NCBI GenBank assembly: GCA_963755915.1
Contig: CAVWLP010000003.1
Span: 1,216,001-1,280,000 of the forward strand
Origin: an uncultured Phycisphaerales bacterium
GTDB lineage: Bacteria; Planctomycetota; Phycisphaerae; Tepidisphaerales; Tepidisphaeraceae
Direction: 5' to 3'
DNA length: 64,000 bases
Shown: positions 1,043 through 63,014 of the stretch, piece by piece
How the letters are laid out: every line of letters starts with the position of its first letter
How positions within the stretch are numbered: position 1 is the first letter of the stretch
The notes under the pieces: model-generated
What the model saw: only the letters and a program-made list of their open reading frames with translations
The model's database searches: none
Told to the model about the DNA's origin: nothing
Position numbers and translations under genes: made by a program

Positions 1043-2104
1043 GCGGCGGCGGCTGGCGAGGATGCTGGCGGCGACGGGGGTTTTGCGCGGGATCGAGCGG
1101 CTCTTACCGCGCAGGGGCGTTGTGATCTGGAATTATCATCGGATTGGATCGGCGGACGGAAATCCATTCGATGATGGGGTTTTTTCGGCGACGGCGGAGG
1201 AACTTGGGAAACATTTGAAATACCTCAAGCAAAACTTTCGCCTGATCACGATGGGGGAATTCTTGCGGAGCGTGGAGACGGGATATCGAGATTGGGGCGG
1301 AGCGGCGGCAATGGTGACGTTTGATGATGGGTATCGGGATAATTTCGAGTTGGCGCTGCCGGTGCTGAGGGAAGCGGGCGTTTCCGCTGCGTTTTTTCTT
1401 CCGACGGAATTTCTTGAAAGCCGGAAATTGCCGTGGTGGGATCGGATTGCGTATGGGATTAAAAAGACTCAGGTGGATCGGATTTCGCTCGATTATCCGG
1501 TGAGAGTGGAGATTGATTTGCGCGCGGAGACAACGCCCCCTCCCCGACCCTCCCCCGGAGTACCGGGGGCGGGGGAAATAATTGGAGCGGCGATTCAGCG
1601 GGTTATTGGGATTTATAAATCGGCGGCGGCGATGGACGATGGGCGATTTTTCGCTTCGTTGGAATCGGCGGCGAAAGTCGAGGTGGATGAGATCGGACTT
1701 GCACGGGGACTTTTTATGGATTGGGAGCAGGCGCGGAAACTGGTGGCGGCGGGGATGAGCATTGGGGCGCATACGCACACGCATCCAATTTTGTGCGGCT
1801 TGGGGAATCGCGGCAGCGATGGGAACTTGTTGAGTCCAAAAGGATTCTGGAGGACCGGCTAAACCTTAAGATCAATGCGTTTGCGTATCCGGTGGGAAGC
1901 ATCGGAGCGTTTTCGGAGACGACCAAAAGGCTGGTACGGGAGTGCGGGTATCGGGCGGCGTTTTCGTTTTACGGCGGGATAAATTTTCCGGGGACAACCG
2001 ACGCGATGGATGTGCGTCGTTGTGCGGTGGATGCGACGGATGAATTCGACGAGCTTCGGGCGCGGGCGGTTTTTCTGAGCGCGTTTGGGAAGTCTGTGGT
2101 GTGA
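1029..2104 (+). CDS. Polysaccharide deacetylase (NodB/CE4), frameshift near 1794
   Basis: Motifs NYHRI, TFDDGYRDN and GAHTHTHPIL in ORF 1029..1862. The C-terminus (ELVESKRIL...FAYPVG) continues in ORF 1721..2104. Confidence 0.85.
1535..1576. repeat. REP-like palindrome, CCCTCCCCCGGAGTACCGGGGG family, in-frame inside the deacetylase
   Basis: Hairpin CCCTCCCCCGG-AGTA-CCGGGGGCGGG, translated as PPPRPSPGVPGAGE. Related copies at 51790-51862 and 62044-62080. Confidence 0.75.
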
Positions 2105-5759: not shown

Positions 5760-5812
5760 GAATTCCTCACGGCGGCGCGGTTCGACTAAGCTCACCGAAG
5801 TCCGTGGGCGTT
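5760..5812. repeat. CCCACGG...CCGTGGG palindrome carrying the 24-bp micro-element (5779-5802)
   Basis: 48/53 identical to 62468-62520. Confidence 0.85.
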
Positions 5813-5826
5813 TCCATGCTTGCAAG

Positions 5827-5857
5827 AAAAAGCCCGCCGGGGAGGCGGGCTTTTTTT
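5827..5857. terminator. Bidirectional rho-independent terminator
   Basis: AAAAAGCCCGCC-GGGGA-GGCGGGCTTTTTTT between convergent genes. Confidence 0.9.
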
Positions 5858-37080: not shown

Positions 37081-37267
37081 GATGAGTTTTTTTCTCCCCT
37101 GGCTGGGTGCGATCTGCCGGGCCAGGCTTGGGGGGAATATGCGTGGGTGATGAGGTGCATCTATATATAGGTCCGAAAGGTGTACGTTTTGTACCTATTT
37201 TTGGGAAATCGGCGGATTTTTTTGAAATTTTTTTTCGGGGGTGGATCGTTGGGGGCGGCGAAAAGAC

Positions 37268-37300
37268 GCGCCCCGCAAGCGGGGGCGGCTACACGGGGAG
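37268..37300. repeat. GTAG-type REP-like palindrome, empty (uninterrupted) form
   Basis: GCGCCCCGC-AAGCGGGGGCGGCTACACGGGGAG shares the GGCGGCTACACGGGGAG end with 48764-48819. Confidence 0.75.
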
Positions 37301-48131: not shown

Positions 48132-48728
48132 ATGCTGACAGTGAGATATATTGAGAGGATGTGGGAAGGGCGGAAATATCAGCGGCTTTTGGATGAATTG
48201 ATTGGCCCGCGGGTGGAGGCGCTGGCCGCCGGTGAATTGCGGGAGATGCCGACAGCAGCAGCGGCCGCGATGGCCCTGGTTCGGCTCGACGAAATGCTCC
48301 AGGCGCATGTCCCGATCTGCGGAATATTGATCCGAACCCTCATTGCCTTTCAGGACGCCGACGGGGGCTGGGGAGACGTGGCAACCACCGCCCTTTGCGT
48401 GCGGGCTCTTTCCCTTCAAAACGGGCAGGGGGCGGTCATTGAGCGGGGGATTCAATATCTCGCGATATTGCAACAGCCCGAGGGGATTTGGCCGAATATT
48501 CCGATTCGGCGCATGCCGGAGGATGCGCTGGTCTCGGCATTCGTGATGCTCCAACTTGCGGATAATTCGCGGTTTGAGGAGGTAGTAAGATTTGACGCTG
48601 CTGTCCAGTGGTTTACGGGGCGGCGAGGATTTCTGGACGAGAATGCGCGGGCGATCTGGGATCAGGCTCGCCTCCGTCTGCCGGCGCACAGCACAACCCG
48701 CGCTGGGGCGGAGGCGAGCTGGTCCTGA
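48132..48728 (+). CDS. Hypothetical protein with prenyltransferase/squalene-cyclase QW-like repeats
   Basis: RBS AAGGAG; FQDADGGWG and LQQPEGIWP. Confidence 0.6.
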   Translation: MLTVRYIERMWEGRKYQRLLDELIGPRVEALAAGELREMPTAAAAAMALVRLDEMLQAHVPICGILIRTLIAFQDADGGWGDVATTALCVRALSLQNGQGAVIERGIQYLAILQQPEGIWPNIPIRRMPEDALVSAFVMLQLADNSRFEEVVRFDAAVQWFTGRRGFLDENARAIWDQARLRLPAHSTTRAGAEASWS

Positions 48729-48763
48729 TCCGGTGGGTTGGAATGGTTGATTAAGTTCGAATA

Positions 48764-48819
48764 GCGCCGGGCGGTTCGACACAGCTCACCGAAGTCAAGC
48801 CCGGCGGCTACACGGGGAG
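48764..48819. repeat. GTAG-type REP-like palindrome filled with the 24-bp micro-element (48773-48796)
   Basis: GCGCCGGGC[GGTTCGACACAGCTCACCGAAGTC]AAGCCCGGCGGCTACACGGGGAG. Confidence 0.85.
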
Positions 48820-48843
48820 CGATCAGGATCGTAGGATTGGGGC

Positions 48844-49933
48844 ATGGGTGAGGTTGCGGATCGGTTGCCGAAGGCTGTCGCGGTGATTGAGCGCGGTTGT
48901 GCGGCGGGATTGCATACCGGGGCGCAGATTTATGTTTTGCGCGGGGGTCAGGCCGTCGTCGATGCGGGGATTGGCAAGGCGCGGTCGGATATTCCAATGA
49001 CATCCGATTCGATTCTTCTCTGGCTCTCGGCGGGCAAGCCGCTGGCGAGCGTAATGTTCGGCAGATTGTGGGAGGCCACCGCAGTGGGCCTCGATGATCC
49101 CGTCGTCAAATTTATTCCCGAGTTTGCGGCGCGAGGCAAGGAGGGAATCACCGTTCGTCATCTGCTCACGCATACCGCGGGAATACGTATGGTCCAGTGG
49201 TCGCCCTCCTGGGAGGAGACGATCGCCCGGATCTGCGCGGCGCCGATTGAACCGCGGTGGATCCCCGGAAGAACGGCGGGCTATCACCCCCTCACGGCGT
49301 GGTACGTCCTGGGCGAAATTTTCCGGCGGGTTGATCCCGCCCATCGGCCTTATGAGCGCCTCATCGCCGAGGAGATTTTCGAGCGTGTCGGCATGAAAGA
49401 TTGTTTTCTGGCGATGACCGGCGAAGAGTTTCGCCAGCTTTCCGACAGGATCGCCCCTTTGAGCCTAACCAATGCGTCCAAGGCTTCGCCACCGACGTTT
49501 GATACTGAAGCGGGATGTTCGATCTGCTCCCCGGGGGCAAGCGCGAGGCCCAGCGCGCGAGCTCGGGAAATTTTACGAGATGCCTCTGGACGGCGGCCGA
49601 GGCGTGATTTCACCGCAGACGGTTGAAGCCCTTACCGCGCGGCATCGCGCCGGCGTCGAGGATTTGACCTTCAAGGCGATCATCGATTGGGGGCTTGGAT
49701 TTATCATCGATTCAAAGCAGTACGGGCAACAAGCACCGTATGGATATGGGCCCTATGCATCGCCGCGGACCTTCGGGCATTCGGGGAATCAATCTTCGGT
49801 GGGGTTTGCCGATCCGGAGAATGGCCTGGTGGTCGTGGTGATTTTTAATGGGATGCCCGGTGAGGAAGCCCATCAGCAAAGAAGGCGCGAGACGCTGGCG
49901 GCGATTTATGAGGACCTGGGAATCACGTCATAG
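48844..49933 (+). CDS. Serine hydrolase, beta-lactamase class C-like; frameshift near 49546
   Basis: SAGK (SxxK), ITVRHLLTHTAG, AGYH, FGHSG. Confidence 0.9.
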
Positions 49934-51765: not shown

Positions 51766-53156
51766 GCCTCACCGTCGGAATTAACGCTACCCCCACCCTG
51801 ACCCTCCCCTCTTCGAGCCTGAGCCTCAGAGCCGAAGGCCGGAGGATCGAGGGAGGGGGGGGAGGGGAGAGACGGCGGCTCCTCTTCGAGCTTGAAGAGT
51901 TTCTCGACGGCATGGAGATATTGGGTCATGGGGGCGTGCAGCGCATCGGACCCGCGGAGGACCTGGATGGGGTCGTGCAAGAGTTTGTTGACGATTCGGC
52001 GGGTGAGTTCTTCGAGGTGCTGCTTGTCCGTAGGCGTGATGCCGGAGAGCTTGGAGATGGTTTTGTGAAGCTCGTCGAGGGCGACGGCGTGGGAACGCTG
52101 GCGAAGGTGGTCGATGAGCGGACCGAGCATGCGGGCGCGGTGCCAGACGATGAATTCGGCGACCTGCTGGTCGACGATCTGCGCCGCGACCTGGGCGGCC
52201 GCGGAGCGATTTTCCTGGTTGGCCTCGATGGCCCGCTGCAGGTCGTCGAGGTTGTAGAGATAGACGTTTTGGATGTTGCCGACATCGGAGGCGACGTCGC
52301 GCGGGAGGCCGATGTCGATGATGAAGACGGGGCGATACCTTCGGCGGCGGATAACGGCGTCGAAGATGGGGCGGGTGATGATGGGGTGCTGGGCGCCGGT
52401 GCCGGTGATGATGATGTCGGCGGCGGTGAGGTGGTCGGGGAGATTTTCCATGCCGCAGGCCGTGGCGGAGAATTTTTCGGCCAGGAGCCTGGCCTTTTCC
52501 AGGTCGCGGTTGCAGATGAGAAGTTTGCCGGGCTTGAGGGCGGAGACGGCGCTTAAGACAAGCTCGCCCATTTTTCCGGCGCCGATGTTGAGGACGGTTT
52601 TGTCGGTGAAGACGTCAAAGATTCGCCGCGCGTATTGGACGGCGACGCTGGCGACGGAGGTGCGGCCTTCGCTGAGGGGAGTTTGGGAACGGACCTGCTT
52701 GCCCACGGCGATGGCGCGCTGGAAGAGAGGATGCAACATCGGCCCGGCCGCCCCGGTGGCGGCGGCGGCTTCGTAGGCTTCGCGCACCTGGCCGAGGATC
52801 TGGGTTTCGCCGACGACCATGGAATCGAGGGAAGCGGCGACGGAAAACAGGTGGCTGATGACGTCGCGCTCCGATTTGCTGTAGAGGTTGTTTTCGAATT
52901 CTTCGGGCGGCACGTTGCGAAGACCGGCGAGGAAACCGGTCAGCTCATGCTCGCGGGGATGGCCGTGGGTTGGGCGGGCCAGGTAAATCTCCGTGCGGTT
53001 GCAGGTCGAGAGAAGGACGGCTTCGCACTCCGGGAATTTCTGGCGGACCTCTGCCAGGGCCTGGTTTCGCTGGTCGCTCGAGAAGGCAAGGCGCTTGCGC
53101 AGCTCCAGCGGGGCGGTTTTGTGATTCAGTCCCAGGAGAAGCAGTCGTTGCATCAT
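51762..53156 (-). CDS. hemA: Glutamyl-tRNA reductase
   Basis: GLNHKTAPLELR, LSTCNRTE, SLDSMVVGETQILGQV, IGAGKMG, DIGLPRD. Confidence 0.97.
   Translation of the reverse strand: MMQRLLLLGLNHKTAPLELRKRLAFSSDQRNQALAEVRQKFPECEAVLLSTCNRTEIYLARPTHGHPREHELTGFLAGLRNVPPEEFENNLYSKSERDVISHLFSVAASLDSMVVGETQILGQVREAYEAAAATGAAGPMLHPLFQRAIAVGKQVRSQTPLSEGRTSVASVAVQYARRIFDVFTDKTVLNIGAGKMGELVLSAVSALKPGKLLICNRDLEKARLLAEKFSATACGMENLPDHLTAADIIITGTGAQHPIITRPIFDAVIRRRRYRPVFIIDIGLPRDVASDVGNIQNVYLYNLDDLQRAIEANQENRSAAAQVAAQIVDQQVAEFIVWHRARMLGPLIDHLRQRSHAVALDELHKTISKLSGITPTDKQHLEELTRRIVNKLLHDPIQVLRGSDALHAPMTQYLHAVEKLFKLEEEPPSLPSPPSLDPPAFGSEAQARRGEGQGGGSVNSDGEA
51790..51862. repeat. CCCTCCCC-family palindrome with a 30-bp micro-element insert (51810-51839), within the hemA 3' end
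   Basis: CCCCCACCCTGACCCTCCCC[TCTTCGAGCCTGAGCCTCAGAGCCGAAGGC]CGGAGGATCGAGGGAGGG. Confidence 0.75.
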
Positions 53157-61569: not shown

Positions 61570-61610
61570 AAGAGATTGCCGAATGCCAAATGCCGAATTT
61601 AGATAGCGTC

Positions 61611-61964: not shown

Positions 61965-62038
61965 GTACCGCCGATGTCCTCATCGGCGGAAGTTGGATGG
62001 GAGGGCGGGGATTCCGCCGGTGAGGACACCGGCGGCAT
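61965..62038. repeat. Inverted pair of REP-like hairpins (REPIN/BIME-like)
   Basis: GTACCGCCGATGTCCTCATCGGCGGA and the inverted copy TCCGCCGGTGAGGACACCGGCGGCAT. Confidence 0.75.
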
Positions 62039-62467: not shown

Positions 62468-62520
62468 GAATTCCCCACGGCAGCGCGGCTCGACTGAGCT
62501 CGCCGAAGTCCGTGGGCGTT
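62468..62520. repeat. CCCACGG...CCGTGGG palindrome with the 24-bp micro-element (62487-62510)
   Basis: 48/53 identical to 5760-5812. Confidence 0.85.
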
Positions 62521-62546: not shown

Positions 62547-63014
62547 ATGACCGACGAATCCCTAATGAAGGAGGCGGTCGCCGAGGCGCGGGGTGCGCTG
62601 GCGATGGATGAGGTGCCGGTGGGATGCGTGATTCTGCACCTGCCAACGGATCGGATCATCGGGCGGGGCCACAACCGGCGGGAGACCGACGGCGATCCGA
62701 CGGCGCATGCCGAGATGATCGCGCTGCGGGAAGCCGCGACGGCGCTGGGGCACTGGCGTTTGAGCGAATGCGCAATGGCGGTGACGCTGGAGCCGTGCCC
62801 GATGTGCGCGGGGGCGATCGTCAATGCGCGAATTGCGCGGCTCATCTACGGATGCGACGACCCAAAGGCGGGGGCGATCCGGACGCTCTACCAGATCTGC
62901 GACGATCCGCGGTTGAATCATCAGGCACAAATAACCGGCGGAGTAATGGCGGAAGAGTGCGCGAAGCTTCTTCGGGAATTCTTCCAACAGCAAAGGGCCT
63001 GTGGGAAGAAATAA
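62547..63014 (+). CDS. tadA: tRNA adenosine(34) deaminase
   Basis: EVPVG, DPTAHAE, TLEPCPMCAGAI, DPKAG, RLNH, FF..R. ATG at 62547. Confidence 0.95.
   Translation: MTDESLMKEAVAEARGALAMDEVPVGCVILHLPTDRIIGRGHNRRETDGDPTAHAEMIALREAATALGHWRLSECAMAVTLEPCPMCAGAIVNARIARLIYGCDDPKAGAIRTLYQICDDPRLNHQAQITGGVMAEECAKLLREFFQQQRACGKK

Follow-up and report, generated by a model that had tools for sequence, protein, structure and literature searches.

A 24-nt repeat in Tepidisphaeraceae genomes, probably a micro-insertion element that enters other repeats base-precisely

How does one and the same 24-nt sequence come to lie inside unrelated hairpins, each of which also exists without it? The question is raised by positions 48764-48819 of the window, that is, the whole 64,000-nt stretch analyzed here (G000:C3:1216001-1280000), which is part of a 6.63-Mb, 59% GC assembly in three contigs (G000, contigs C1 to C3) flagged as 81% complete with 8% contamination. 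The initial annotation of this DNA had placed a 24-mer, hereafter element A, at 5779-5802, 48773-48796, and 62487-62510, and a pattern search reproduced all three positions. These matches to GGYTCGACNNAGCTCRCCGAAGTC are all on the plus strand with 0 mismatches; the chance expectation in the window was 0.01, and 0 of 100 shuffles yielded three or more matches. All three copies are preceded by GC and end in C, as had been stated. Likewise, taking the 24-mer out of the copy at 62487 leaves the perfect hairpin CCCACGGC-AGC-GCCGTGGG, and the uninterrupted relative announced for the host at 48764 was located at 37266-37300, with a stem that differs in sequence and is still complementary. From the evidence set out below, element A is probably a non-autonomous micro-insertion element, written base-precisely by machinery acting in trans.

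Copies were counted across G000 at up to three substitutions, once matches ending in GCAGGC, which belong to the tandem array of an insertion sequence (IS) of the IS21 family, had been removed. The count yielded 80 copies, 44 of them exact and the others carrying one (20), two (13), or three (3) substitutions; they are distributed over C2 (59), C3 (18), and C1 (3) and over the plus (35) and minus (45) strands. Clustering of the 12+12 nt flanking each copy resolved 16 contexts, with 23, 20, 8, 8, 5, 4, 2, and 2 members plus eight singletons (Table 1). Within each host family the position and orientation of the element are identical, and different sub-variants of element A were found inside a single host family. 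The preceding base is C in 79 of the 80 copies (dinucleotide GC in 53, AC in 23, TC in 3, and GG in 1). When each of the 16 contexts is counted once, the left flank carries C at −1 in 16/16, a purine (R) at −2 in 14/16, and C at −3 in 12/16, CRC being the usual motif, and the junctions repeat at most 1 nt (C). The common denominator of the targets is this short left-flank motif. A search of the whole genome with the joined 11+11-nt flanks (≤3 mismatches) uncovered 568 non-redundant empty-like sites, with most type I queries returning ~35-43. The hosts thus constitute repeat families in their own right, of which a minority is filled. Together, these counts bear out the earlier claim that a module below the size of a miniature inverted-repeat transposable element (MITE) occurs in unrelated hosts, with filled and empty sites. 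The companion claim that it targets hairpin DNA is right about hairpins and wrong about exclusivity, since tandem heptamer repeats, the terminal repeat of a MITE, and another micro-element also serve as hosts.

We further compared orthologous loci in G001, the closest relative, which is 88% identical over 1.4 kb around the window site. Fifty exact G001 copies were taken and their flanks sought in G000, with syntenic flanks recovered for 31. Exact 24-bp gaps in an otherwise conserved host were evident in G000 at four of these loci, namely L042, where the host is the repetitive extragenic palindromic (REP) family of a REP-associated tyrosine transposase (RAYT), L050 and L051 (both type I), and L062 (type II). 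At L030, with a heptamer host, the gap is 31 bp (24+7), and L040 is ambiguous. Both genomes are filled at five loci (L037, L041, L046, L056, and L069, the last being the orthologue of the window site at 48773-48796), whereas G000 is devoid of host and element together at six (L029, L031, L033, L039, L057, and L058); the remaining 14 loci could not be assigned by alignment. The 24-bp gaps and the joint absences of host and element therefore reveal that both the lone 24-mer and the filled hosts vary between species that are ~85-94% identical at these loci. Clean 24-bp indels between relatives, which the initial annotation had foreseen, were thus found at four loci and, in addition, within a gene.

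This gene copy (C2:3013067) lies inside an 897-residue open frame with tetratricopeptide (TPR) repeats and a Glyco_transf_41 domain (2.2e-58), features of O-GlcNAc transferase (OGT)-like proteins; the solved homologue 5djs_A aligns across the insertion site, with a gap of ~21 residues there. Three tandem OGT-like paralogs, all with TPR and glycosyltransferase family 41 (GT41) regions, are present in both G000 (C2:3010971-3015105) and G001 (C4:526612-530773), and a type I REP-like hairpin in reverse-strand orientation lies in frame in the loop region of these paralogs. Paralog 1 contains the hairpin without the 24-mer in both genomes. In paralog 2 the 24-mer occupies the hairpin in G000 but is missing from it in G001, so that the two differ by exactly 24 bp, or eight codons (GLRRAQSS). 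In paralog 3, G001 carries the hairpin with the 24-mer and G000 lacks both. The insert thus consists of eight codons of element A added to a host repeat of roughly 13 codons. With paralog 1 and paralog 2 of G001 as rough outgroups, comparison of these sequences suggests that the 24-mer of paralog 2 was gained in G000. In-frame insertion into a gene had been anticipated and is exemplified by GLRRAQSS, although not in the reading frame of the peptides that had been proposed. The statement that four of six frames of the element are stop-free turned out to be true of one variant only, because the three window copies give four, five, and five.

A half-element search for element A led to a second module, element B, a near-palindromic 30-mer (YCTTCGRCYCTGAGGCTCAGRCYCGAAGRG). 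The two meet in a 54-nt composite that is made up of the first 10 bases of A, YCTTCGRCYCTGAGGCTCAGRCYCGAAGRG, and the last 14 bases of A, and that occupies ordinary A sites (types I, III, and IV, the TCTTGGCG family, and a plain hairpin). Element B has ~36 copies in G000, a few loci being perhaps counted on both strands. Eight of these copies are inserted in A after position 10, in hosts that also carry plain A, ~17 are central in a very abundant REP-like hairpin (...GGTACTCCGG/GRGAGGG..., the slash marking the insertion point here and below), and four occur in other heptamer arrays. The REP-like hairpin and heptamer hosts of B yielded 579 empty-like sites. Nesting extends to three levels at C2:701063, where an A-like 25-mer lies within B within A, and at C2:814578/814670, where B lies within A within B; in viral contigs, A is inserted in A after position 8 (L190) or after position 13 (L177). 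Every copy of B follows a G and has G as its last base, mirroring the preceding and terminal C of A, and the motifs TCGAC, CTGAG..CTC, and CGAAG are common to both elements.

Element A is not confined to this genome. A search of 31 related genomes at ≤1 mismatch, for which the reversed-pattern control gave 0 matches in all 31, recovered it in 14. Copy numbers at this threshold were 64 in G000, 84 in G001, 31 in G006, 16 in G011, and 12 each in G004 and G009, with none in G003 and G008. By rank, the element is present in 10 of 12 other genomes of the genus and in 3 of 6 other genera of the family, or 2 of 5 without G014, an unpublished genome with a single 1-mismatch match; at ≤1 mismatch it was absent from all 12 genomes of other families of the class. 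The same consensus recurs in genera that share only ~70% identity in their coding DNA. In an even sample of 400 other genomes of the phylum, 8 contained exact matches, each with 1-3 copies (control 0/401), and the exact 24-mer was found at 18 loci (L173-L190) in 15 predicted viral IMG/VR contigs. These contigs have 41-70% GC and include two complete genomes that carry terminal repeats; C precedes the 24-mer at 17 of the 18 loci. Copies are thus known from contigs of the chromosome, from one small contig, and from viral contigs. Element A, or the activity that writes it, thus exceeds one genus and reaches phage DNA.

We next consider the structure of the element. Co-variation was scored on 141 copies (43 distinct sequences) from G000, G001, and other genomes, and the strongest mutual information linked positions 3:16 (T-A in 25, C-G in 16, other in 2) and 2:17 (G-C in 36, A-T in 2, T-A in 1, other in 4), positions 9-10 being hypervariable. 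This pattern supports a putative 3-bp stem GGY/RCC with a variable apex. The term hairpin in the initial annotation is accordingly backed by complementary changes at the two pairs, but not by the fold of the lone 24-mer relative to shuffles. Filled hosts keep the stem of the host (z −2.4 to −2.8), as in the composites at 48764-48819 (−13.6 kcal/mol, z −2.74) and 62474-62520 (−13.9 kcal/mol, z −2.41), with the exception of the copy at 5766 (z +0.67). The B composite at 51809-51838 folds at −18.7 kcal/mol (z −2.84). The ends of element A, GGCTCGAC and GACTTCGG, are not inverted repeats.

The features of the window and the host contexts of the genome are collected in Table 1. The filled host at 48764-48819 is intergenic, with ORFs at 48132-48728 (+) and 48844-49626 (+, beta-lactamase family) on either side. 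That at 5766-5812 lies between convergent genes and adjoins a terminator-like GC hairpin with a T run (5829-5856), 27 bases past the copy of element A. Downstream of the host at 62474-62520, the product of the tadA-like gene has its best relatives in Planctomycetota metagenome-assembled genomes (61% identity). Genome-wide, our own crude gene model (5816 genes, 81.5% coding) assigns 64 of the 80 copies to intergenic DNA, 3 to ORF edges, and 13 to the interior of predicted ORFs, where most are near the ends of over-extended frames. Between neighbors pointing the same way, element A is co-oriented in 18 cases and opposed in 23, which gives no hint of an RNA function tied to orientation. As a check on replication-strand bias, cumulative GC skew was inspected for the two large contigs and followed no interpretable course.

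Table 1. Elements A and B, their filled and empty hosts in the window, and the contexts of element A in G000 (a slash marks the insertion point)
Feature	Window position	Strand	Basis	Copies of A in G000
Element A, variant GGT..ACAG..ACC, the copy named in the initial annotation	48773..48796	+	pattern match	
Type II host: REP-like hairpin with tail GGCGGCTACACGGGGAG, element A in the loop	48764..48819	+	sequence and fold	
Element A, variant GGT..TAAG..ACC	5779..5802	+	pattern match	
Type I host hairpin (CYCACGGCRGCGC/CGTGGGCG), A two bases into the 3' arm	5766..5812	+		
Element A, consensus variant GGC..TGAG..GCC	62487..62510	+	pattern match	
Type I host hairpin with A, upstream of tadA-like deaminase gene (ATG at 62547)	62474..62520	+		
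Empty type II host, family of 48764-48819, other stem sequence	37266..37300	+		
Empty type IV host (CCGCCGGTGAGGACAC/CGGCGGCA); family A-filled at 8 other genome places	62014..62038	+		
Empty heptamer tandem array ([AT][AT]TGCC[AG])x3; family A-filled at 8 other places	61575..61595	+		
Element B, center of abundant REP-like hairpin (host about 51790-51858)	51809..51838	-		
Empty REP-like host of element B (CCGGTACTCCGG/GGGAGGG)	1548..1566	-		
Type II context: hairpin, tail GGCGGCTACACGGGGA				23
Type I context: hairpin CCCACGGCRGCGC/CGTGGGCG				20
Tandem heptamer context [AT][AT]TGCC[AG]				8
Context CCGCCGGTGAGGACAC/CGGCGGCAC				8
Left inverted repeat of ~90-bp MITE, TTGCCAC/AGAT...				5
CTCTGCGC repeats				4
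REP family flanking a RAYT gene, GTTTAGCCGCGAC/CCGCAGGG				2
Remaining contexts, plain hairpins among them				one further pair and 8 singletons

Two further arrangements of the element were observed. Filled hosts form head-to-head pairs at C2:858093/858174 and C3:426283/426364, each spaced by exactly 81 bp from start to start and resembling REPINs (REP doublets forming hairpins). A 26-nt variant with an extra GC mid-element occurs at C1:33302, C2:2457096, C3:219181, and C3:219241, in a host that differs from the other contexts (..ATCCG[TC]GCC/../CATCCGCG.AATCCGCGG).

In the mechanism that we propose, a trans-acting machinery of the cell would write the 24-nt module into DNA, and probably remove it again, with base precision. 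Element A would land directly 3' of C, usually of CRC, in a single orientation relative to this motif and with no duplication beyond a possible one C. Preferred targets would be repetitive or hairpin-forming DNA, namely REP-like hairpins, heptamer arrays, the inverted repeat of a MITE, and element B. B would in turn land inside A to give nested composites, and filled host repeats would afterwards spread or vanish as whole units. How the module might be cut is far more tentative. Single-strand cleavage of the HUH/Y1 type after C at both ends is the route that we favor, although taken by itself it is less likely than not; the cleavage sites would then be CRC^GG... and ...GTC^N, the small GGY/RCC stem would act as the recognition hairpin, and precise excision would be followed by re-insertion 3' of a short motif, as in IS200/IS605 elements. 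By its single orientation, its insertion 3' of a short motif, the lack of duplication, the precise empty sites, the small stem, and its preference for DNA able to become single-stranded or to extrude, the anatomy of element A fits the logic of single-strand HUH elements (IS200/IS605) best, doubtful as this attribution is.

A number of results weigh against a micro-insertion element mobilized in trans, beginning with the search for its enzyme. The RAYT/TnpA gene flanked by the motif that the initial annotation had envisaged did not turn up, as both Y1_Tnp genes of G000 are bordered by other repeats. The gene at C3:1125094-1125798 (L013) is bordered by GGGACGCAGCTAG hairpins and the RAYT-like gene at C3:576251-576835 (L014, C3:576170-576835) by GTTTAGCCGCGACCCGCAGGG REP/REPIN sequences. 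The GTTTAGCCGCGACCCGCAGGG family has ~60 copies, forms a REPIN doublet and a single REP around the L014 gene, and is itself a host of A. Y1 matches were detected in 27 of the 31 relatives and bore no relation to the copy number of A: G011 combines 16 copies with one weak 25-bit Y1 match, and G003 and G008 combine 0 copies with 6 and 3 Y1 matches, respectively. A search for homologues of the two G000 Y1 proteins found none in G011 (83% complete), whereas the copy-free G003 has them. Nor is a Y1 gene present in any of five viral records carrying A, two of which are complete with terminal repeats. Mobilization by a RAYT, as first suggested, thus finds no backing in the relatives or in the viral records. 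No autonomous longer element with the ends of A was recovered from G000, only B-nested forms, the 26-nt variant, and chance gene matches. Other findings point in the same direction. Exact 24-bp differences within one host family could also have their source in gene conversion from a filled copy elsewhere, and the rough polarity was obtained only for OGT-like paralog 2, from paralogs among which conversion is plausible. Contigs from four soil metagenome runs of one study, with no RNA holder listed, cover the region as short pieces ending at repeats and, broken in this manner, revealed no 24-bp polymorphism within the population. At −1.1 and −3.3 kcal/mol, the fold of the lone 24-mer does not surpass shuffles (z +0.33 and −0.39); the stem that has support measures only 3 bp, and the co-variation is carried by few sub-families, perhaps through three independent double changes.

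The intervals between paired or clustered copies (C1:33396-35999 and C3:426364-428943) disclosed no transposase by eye in their translations, of which no Pfam scan was made, and the genes beside the five MITE-borne copies share no mutual homology. An RNA or reverse-transcriptase (RT) route is conceivable because G000 has 15 RT matches, 12 of which represent one group II intron. This intron is 1984 nt long with an RT ORF of 474 aa, and its 12 near-identical copies (e.g., C2:1297476-1299459) are all inserted in a repeat family of the CTCTGCGC type, which is also host of a variant of the 24-mer.

Much of this could be accommodated if element A were now immobile on its own, a few old illegitimate insertions into several repeat families having been spread by multiplication of these hosts (REPs/REPINs, MITEs, and heptamer arrays) and by gene conversion, through homologous recombination, between filled and empty members of a family. 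We consider this account improbable. It would explain readily why A keeps the same position and orientation within each host family, why host and element are present or absent as a unit at 6 of the 17 resolved G001/G000 loci, why the three OGT paralogs look mosaic around the site, and why no dedicated enzyme emerged from the Y1 searches of G000, relatives, and viral records; indeed, one of the host families has a RAYT of its own. However, half of the 16 unrelated contexts are singletons without a family to convert from, and the same C/CRC left-flank rule holds in all contexts as well as at 17 of the 18 viral loci, whatever their GC content within 41-70%. Nor would hitch-hiking predict an identical consensus across genera with coding DNA ~70% identical, the mutual nesting of A and B and the insertion of A in A at fixed internal positions, or the coexistence of several A sub-variants in one host family.

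Selection offers another view, in which the 24-mer is a functional cis-element, that is, a binding site or structured RNA module kept, for example, for a nucleoid, termination, or RNA-processing factor. The strong conservation of the consensus across genera, the compensatory base-pair changes, and the intergenic location of 64/80 copies by the crude gene model, often near gene ends, would suit it, but we regard it as quite improbable: a function does not account for base-precise presence and absence in unrelated hosts, species of one genus contain anywhere between 0 and 84 copies, and copies are found as an in-frame part of a gene, within other repeats, and on phage contigs, with no orientation bias relative to neighboring genes (18 versus 23). 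As for a known RNA family, this candidate was dismissed: 0 Rfam families reached gathering score in the window, and at E≤1 the element itself drew no match, two weak ones to miRNA models, upstream of element A, being all that appeared around 48650-48900. That the element is an artefact of assembly or sequencing, such as an adapter, a linker, or a chimeric collapse of repeats, is hardly credible. The completeness and contamination flags of the genome and the breaking of metagenome contigs at the repeats could raise this suspicion, but the copies come from many species whose assemblies are independent of one another and also from viral contigs, they vary and show compensatory changes, orthologous sites are conserved, and one copy leaves a long reading frame open. 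On these grounds, a micro-insertion element written in trans is still the reading that we prefer.

A further candidate, the IS21 array, was rejected as an insertion of A. The IS21-family element concerned (istA/istB, 2.9 kb, ~28 copies) contains a tandem array of 2-12 units GGCTCGACGGTGCTCGCCGCAGGC, each 24 bp long and, by our own count, 20/24 identical to A. Located in the istA linker and in frame with it, the array codes for GSTVLAAG repeats (e.g., L001 430-573, G000:C3:146627-146770). In a 52%-identical paralog, a single unit of this kind belongs to the native linker (GSTALV), and the array is therefore a variable-number tandem repeat of the gene, in spite of the resemblance of its unit to A.

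Among known systems, REP/REPIN-RAYT repeats resemble element A in being short and extragenic with tens to hundreds of copies, and its occasional inverted doublets (81 bp) recall REPINs. A single-strand HUH mechanism would also fit the insertion of A 3' of a short motif without duplication. However, REPs bear the tags GTAG or CGTC at the foot of the stem-loop (PMC3733652), whereas GTAG is found in 0/80 copies of A and CGTC in 8/80, mostly of one sub-variant. A furthermore differs in having neither a stable palindrome nor, in G000, a RAYT gene flanked by it, and in occupying other REPs, among them the family that accompanies a RAYT gene. The palindrome-associated transposable elements (PATEs) derived from IS200/IS605 are small, non-autonomous, and mobilized in trans. 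As with IS608/ISDra2, their integration takes place in a single orientation, directly 3' of a fixed tetra- or pentanucleotide and without target duplication (PMC6006769). The same source reports that class 3 Y1 genes with atypical flanking hairpins occur in Planctomycetes, a lead rather than a match. Element A shares with PATEs its specific orientation, the location 3' of a short motif (C at −1 in every context), clean empty sites, and the lack of duplication; it appears to differ in having room for one tiny stem instead of two subterminal hairpins, and none of the Y1 genes of G000 could be linked to it. MITEs measure 70-300 bp (PMC3733652). By comparison, A is several-fold smaller, below the minimum of ~50-70 bp set here for a MITE, and it lacks terminal inverted repeats, duplication beyond 1 nt, and a parent IS with the same ends in G000.

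The Rickettsia palindromic elements (RPEs), ~100-150 bp long and from another phylum, reside in frame in protein genes without destroying them. Host hairpin and element A do likewise in the OGT-like paralogs, except that A adds 8 codons on top of a host repeat of ~13. The bacterial interspersed mosaic elements (BIMEs) of enterobacteria are mosaics of REPs with short linker motifs in which the modules are juxtaposed. Here too intergenic repeats are mosaics of short modules, but A is inserted base-precisely inside unrelated repeats; we know of no clean module indels at orthologous loci for BIMEs.

The closest known parallel of element A is the group of small dispersed repeats (SDRs) of heterocyst-forming cyanobacteria. 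In Nostoc and relatives, Elhai and colleagues reportedly described in 2008 eight of these (SDR1-8), 21-27-nt repeats that are said to be embedded in tandem heptamers and minitransposons, to be sometimes nested in themselves, and to share a hairpin with compensatory changes; an RNA intermediate was reportedly suggested for them. Element A compares well on most of these points. At 24 nt it lies within the range reported for SDRs, and it is dispersed, with 80 copies in G000 (≤3 substitutions) and 84 in G001 (≤1 mismatch). It is inserted precisely inside other repeats: two hairpin families account for 43 copies, heptamer arrays for 8, and a ~90-bp MITE, in its inverted repeat, for 5. Nesting is likewise found, with B in A at 8 places, triple composites, and A in A (L190, L177). 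As to the hairpin, A co-varies at 3:16 and 2:17, but with a 3-bp stem, no thermodynamic signal, and few independent events. The host phylum differs, Planctomycetota for A and cyanobacteria for SDRs, and the two are likened by description and not by sequence. Element A also shows orthologous 24-bp indels between two species, an in-frame gene insertion, and viral copies. Two papers that cite the 2008 work place SDRs among short interspersed repeats of unknown origin (PMC3116915) and describe SDR5 as inserted precisely between nt 3 and 4 of HIP1 (PMC4390886). A literature search on SDRs or such elements in Planctomycetes returned only citations of the 2008 paper and no mechanistic follow-up, and, as far as this search showed, the copying of repeats far shorter than MITEs has been unsettled since that description.

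A wider reading, which we hold to be a serious possibility without calling it probable, is that Planctomycetota and their phages harbor active mobile modules of 24-30 nt (A, B, and variants) moved by a trans-acting enzyme other than a RAYT, SDRs being one instance of a wider class. If this were true, modules of this size would be cut and joined after a single defined base, would enter hairpin or repeat DNA, each other, and genes (as 8 residues), and would be precisely removable; A and B would rank among the smallest transposable units, and SDRs would be one case of an overlooked class of micro-transposons. Whether or not this reading is right, the genome group provides a second system, independent of the cyanobacterial one, in which sister species differ by base-precise polymorphisms, the target rule is simple, two element families interact, complete phage genomes contain copies, and an enzyme gene carries an insertion in frame. 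Since copy number varies between 0 and 84 inside a single genus, a phyletic search for the enzyme is possible, and the machinery, if found, would define a minimal substrate for DNA transposition and explain part of the intergenic repeat mosaics. In practical terms, modules of this kind fragment short-read assemblies and can lengthen proteins by inserts of 8 residues. Together, these comparisons make it likely that element A is an SDR-like micro-insertion element in a new phylum, accompanied by a sister element, B, and by nested composites of the two.

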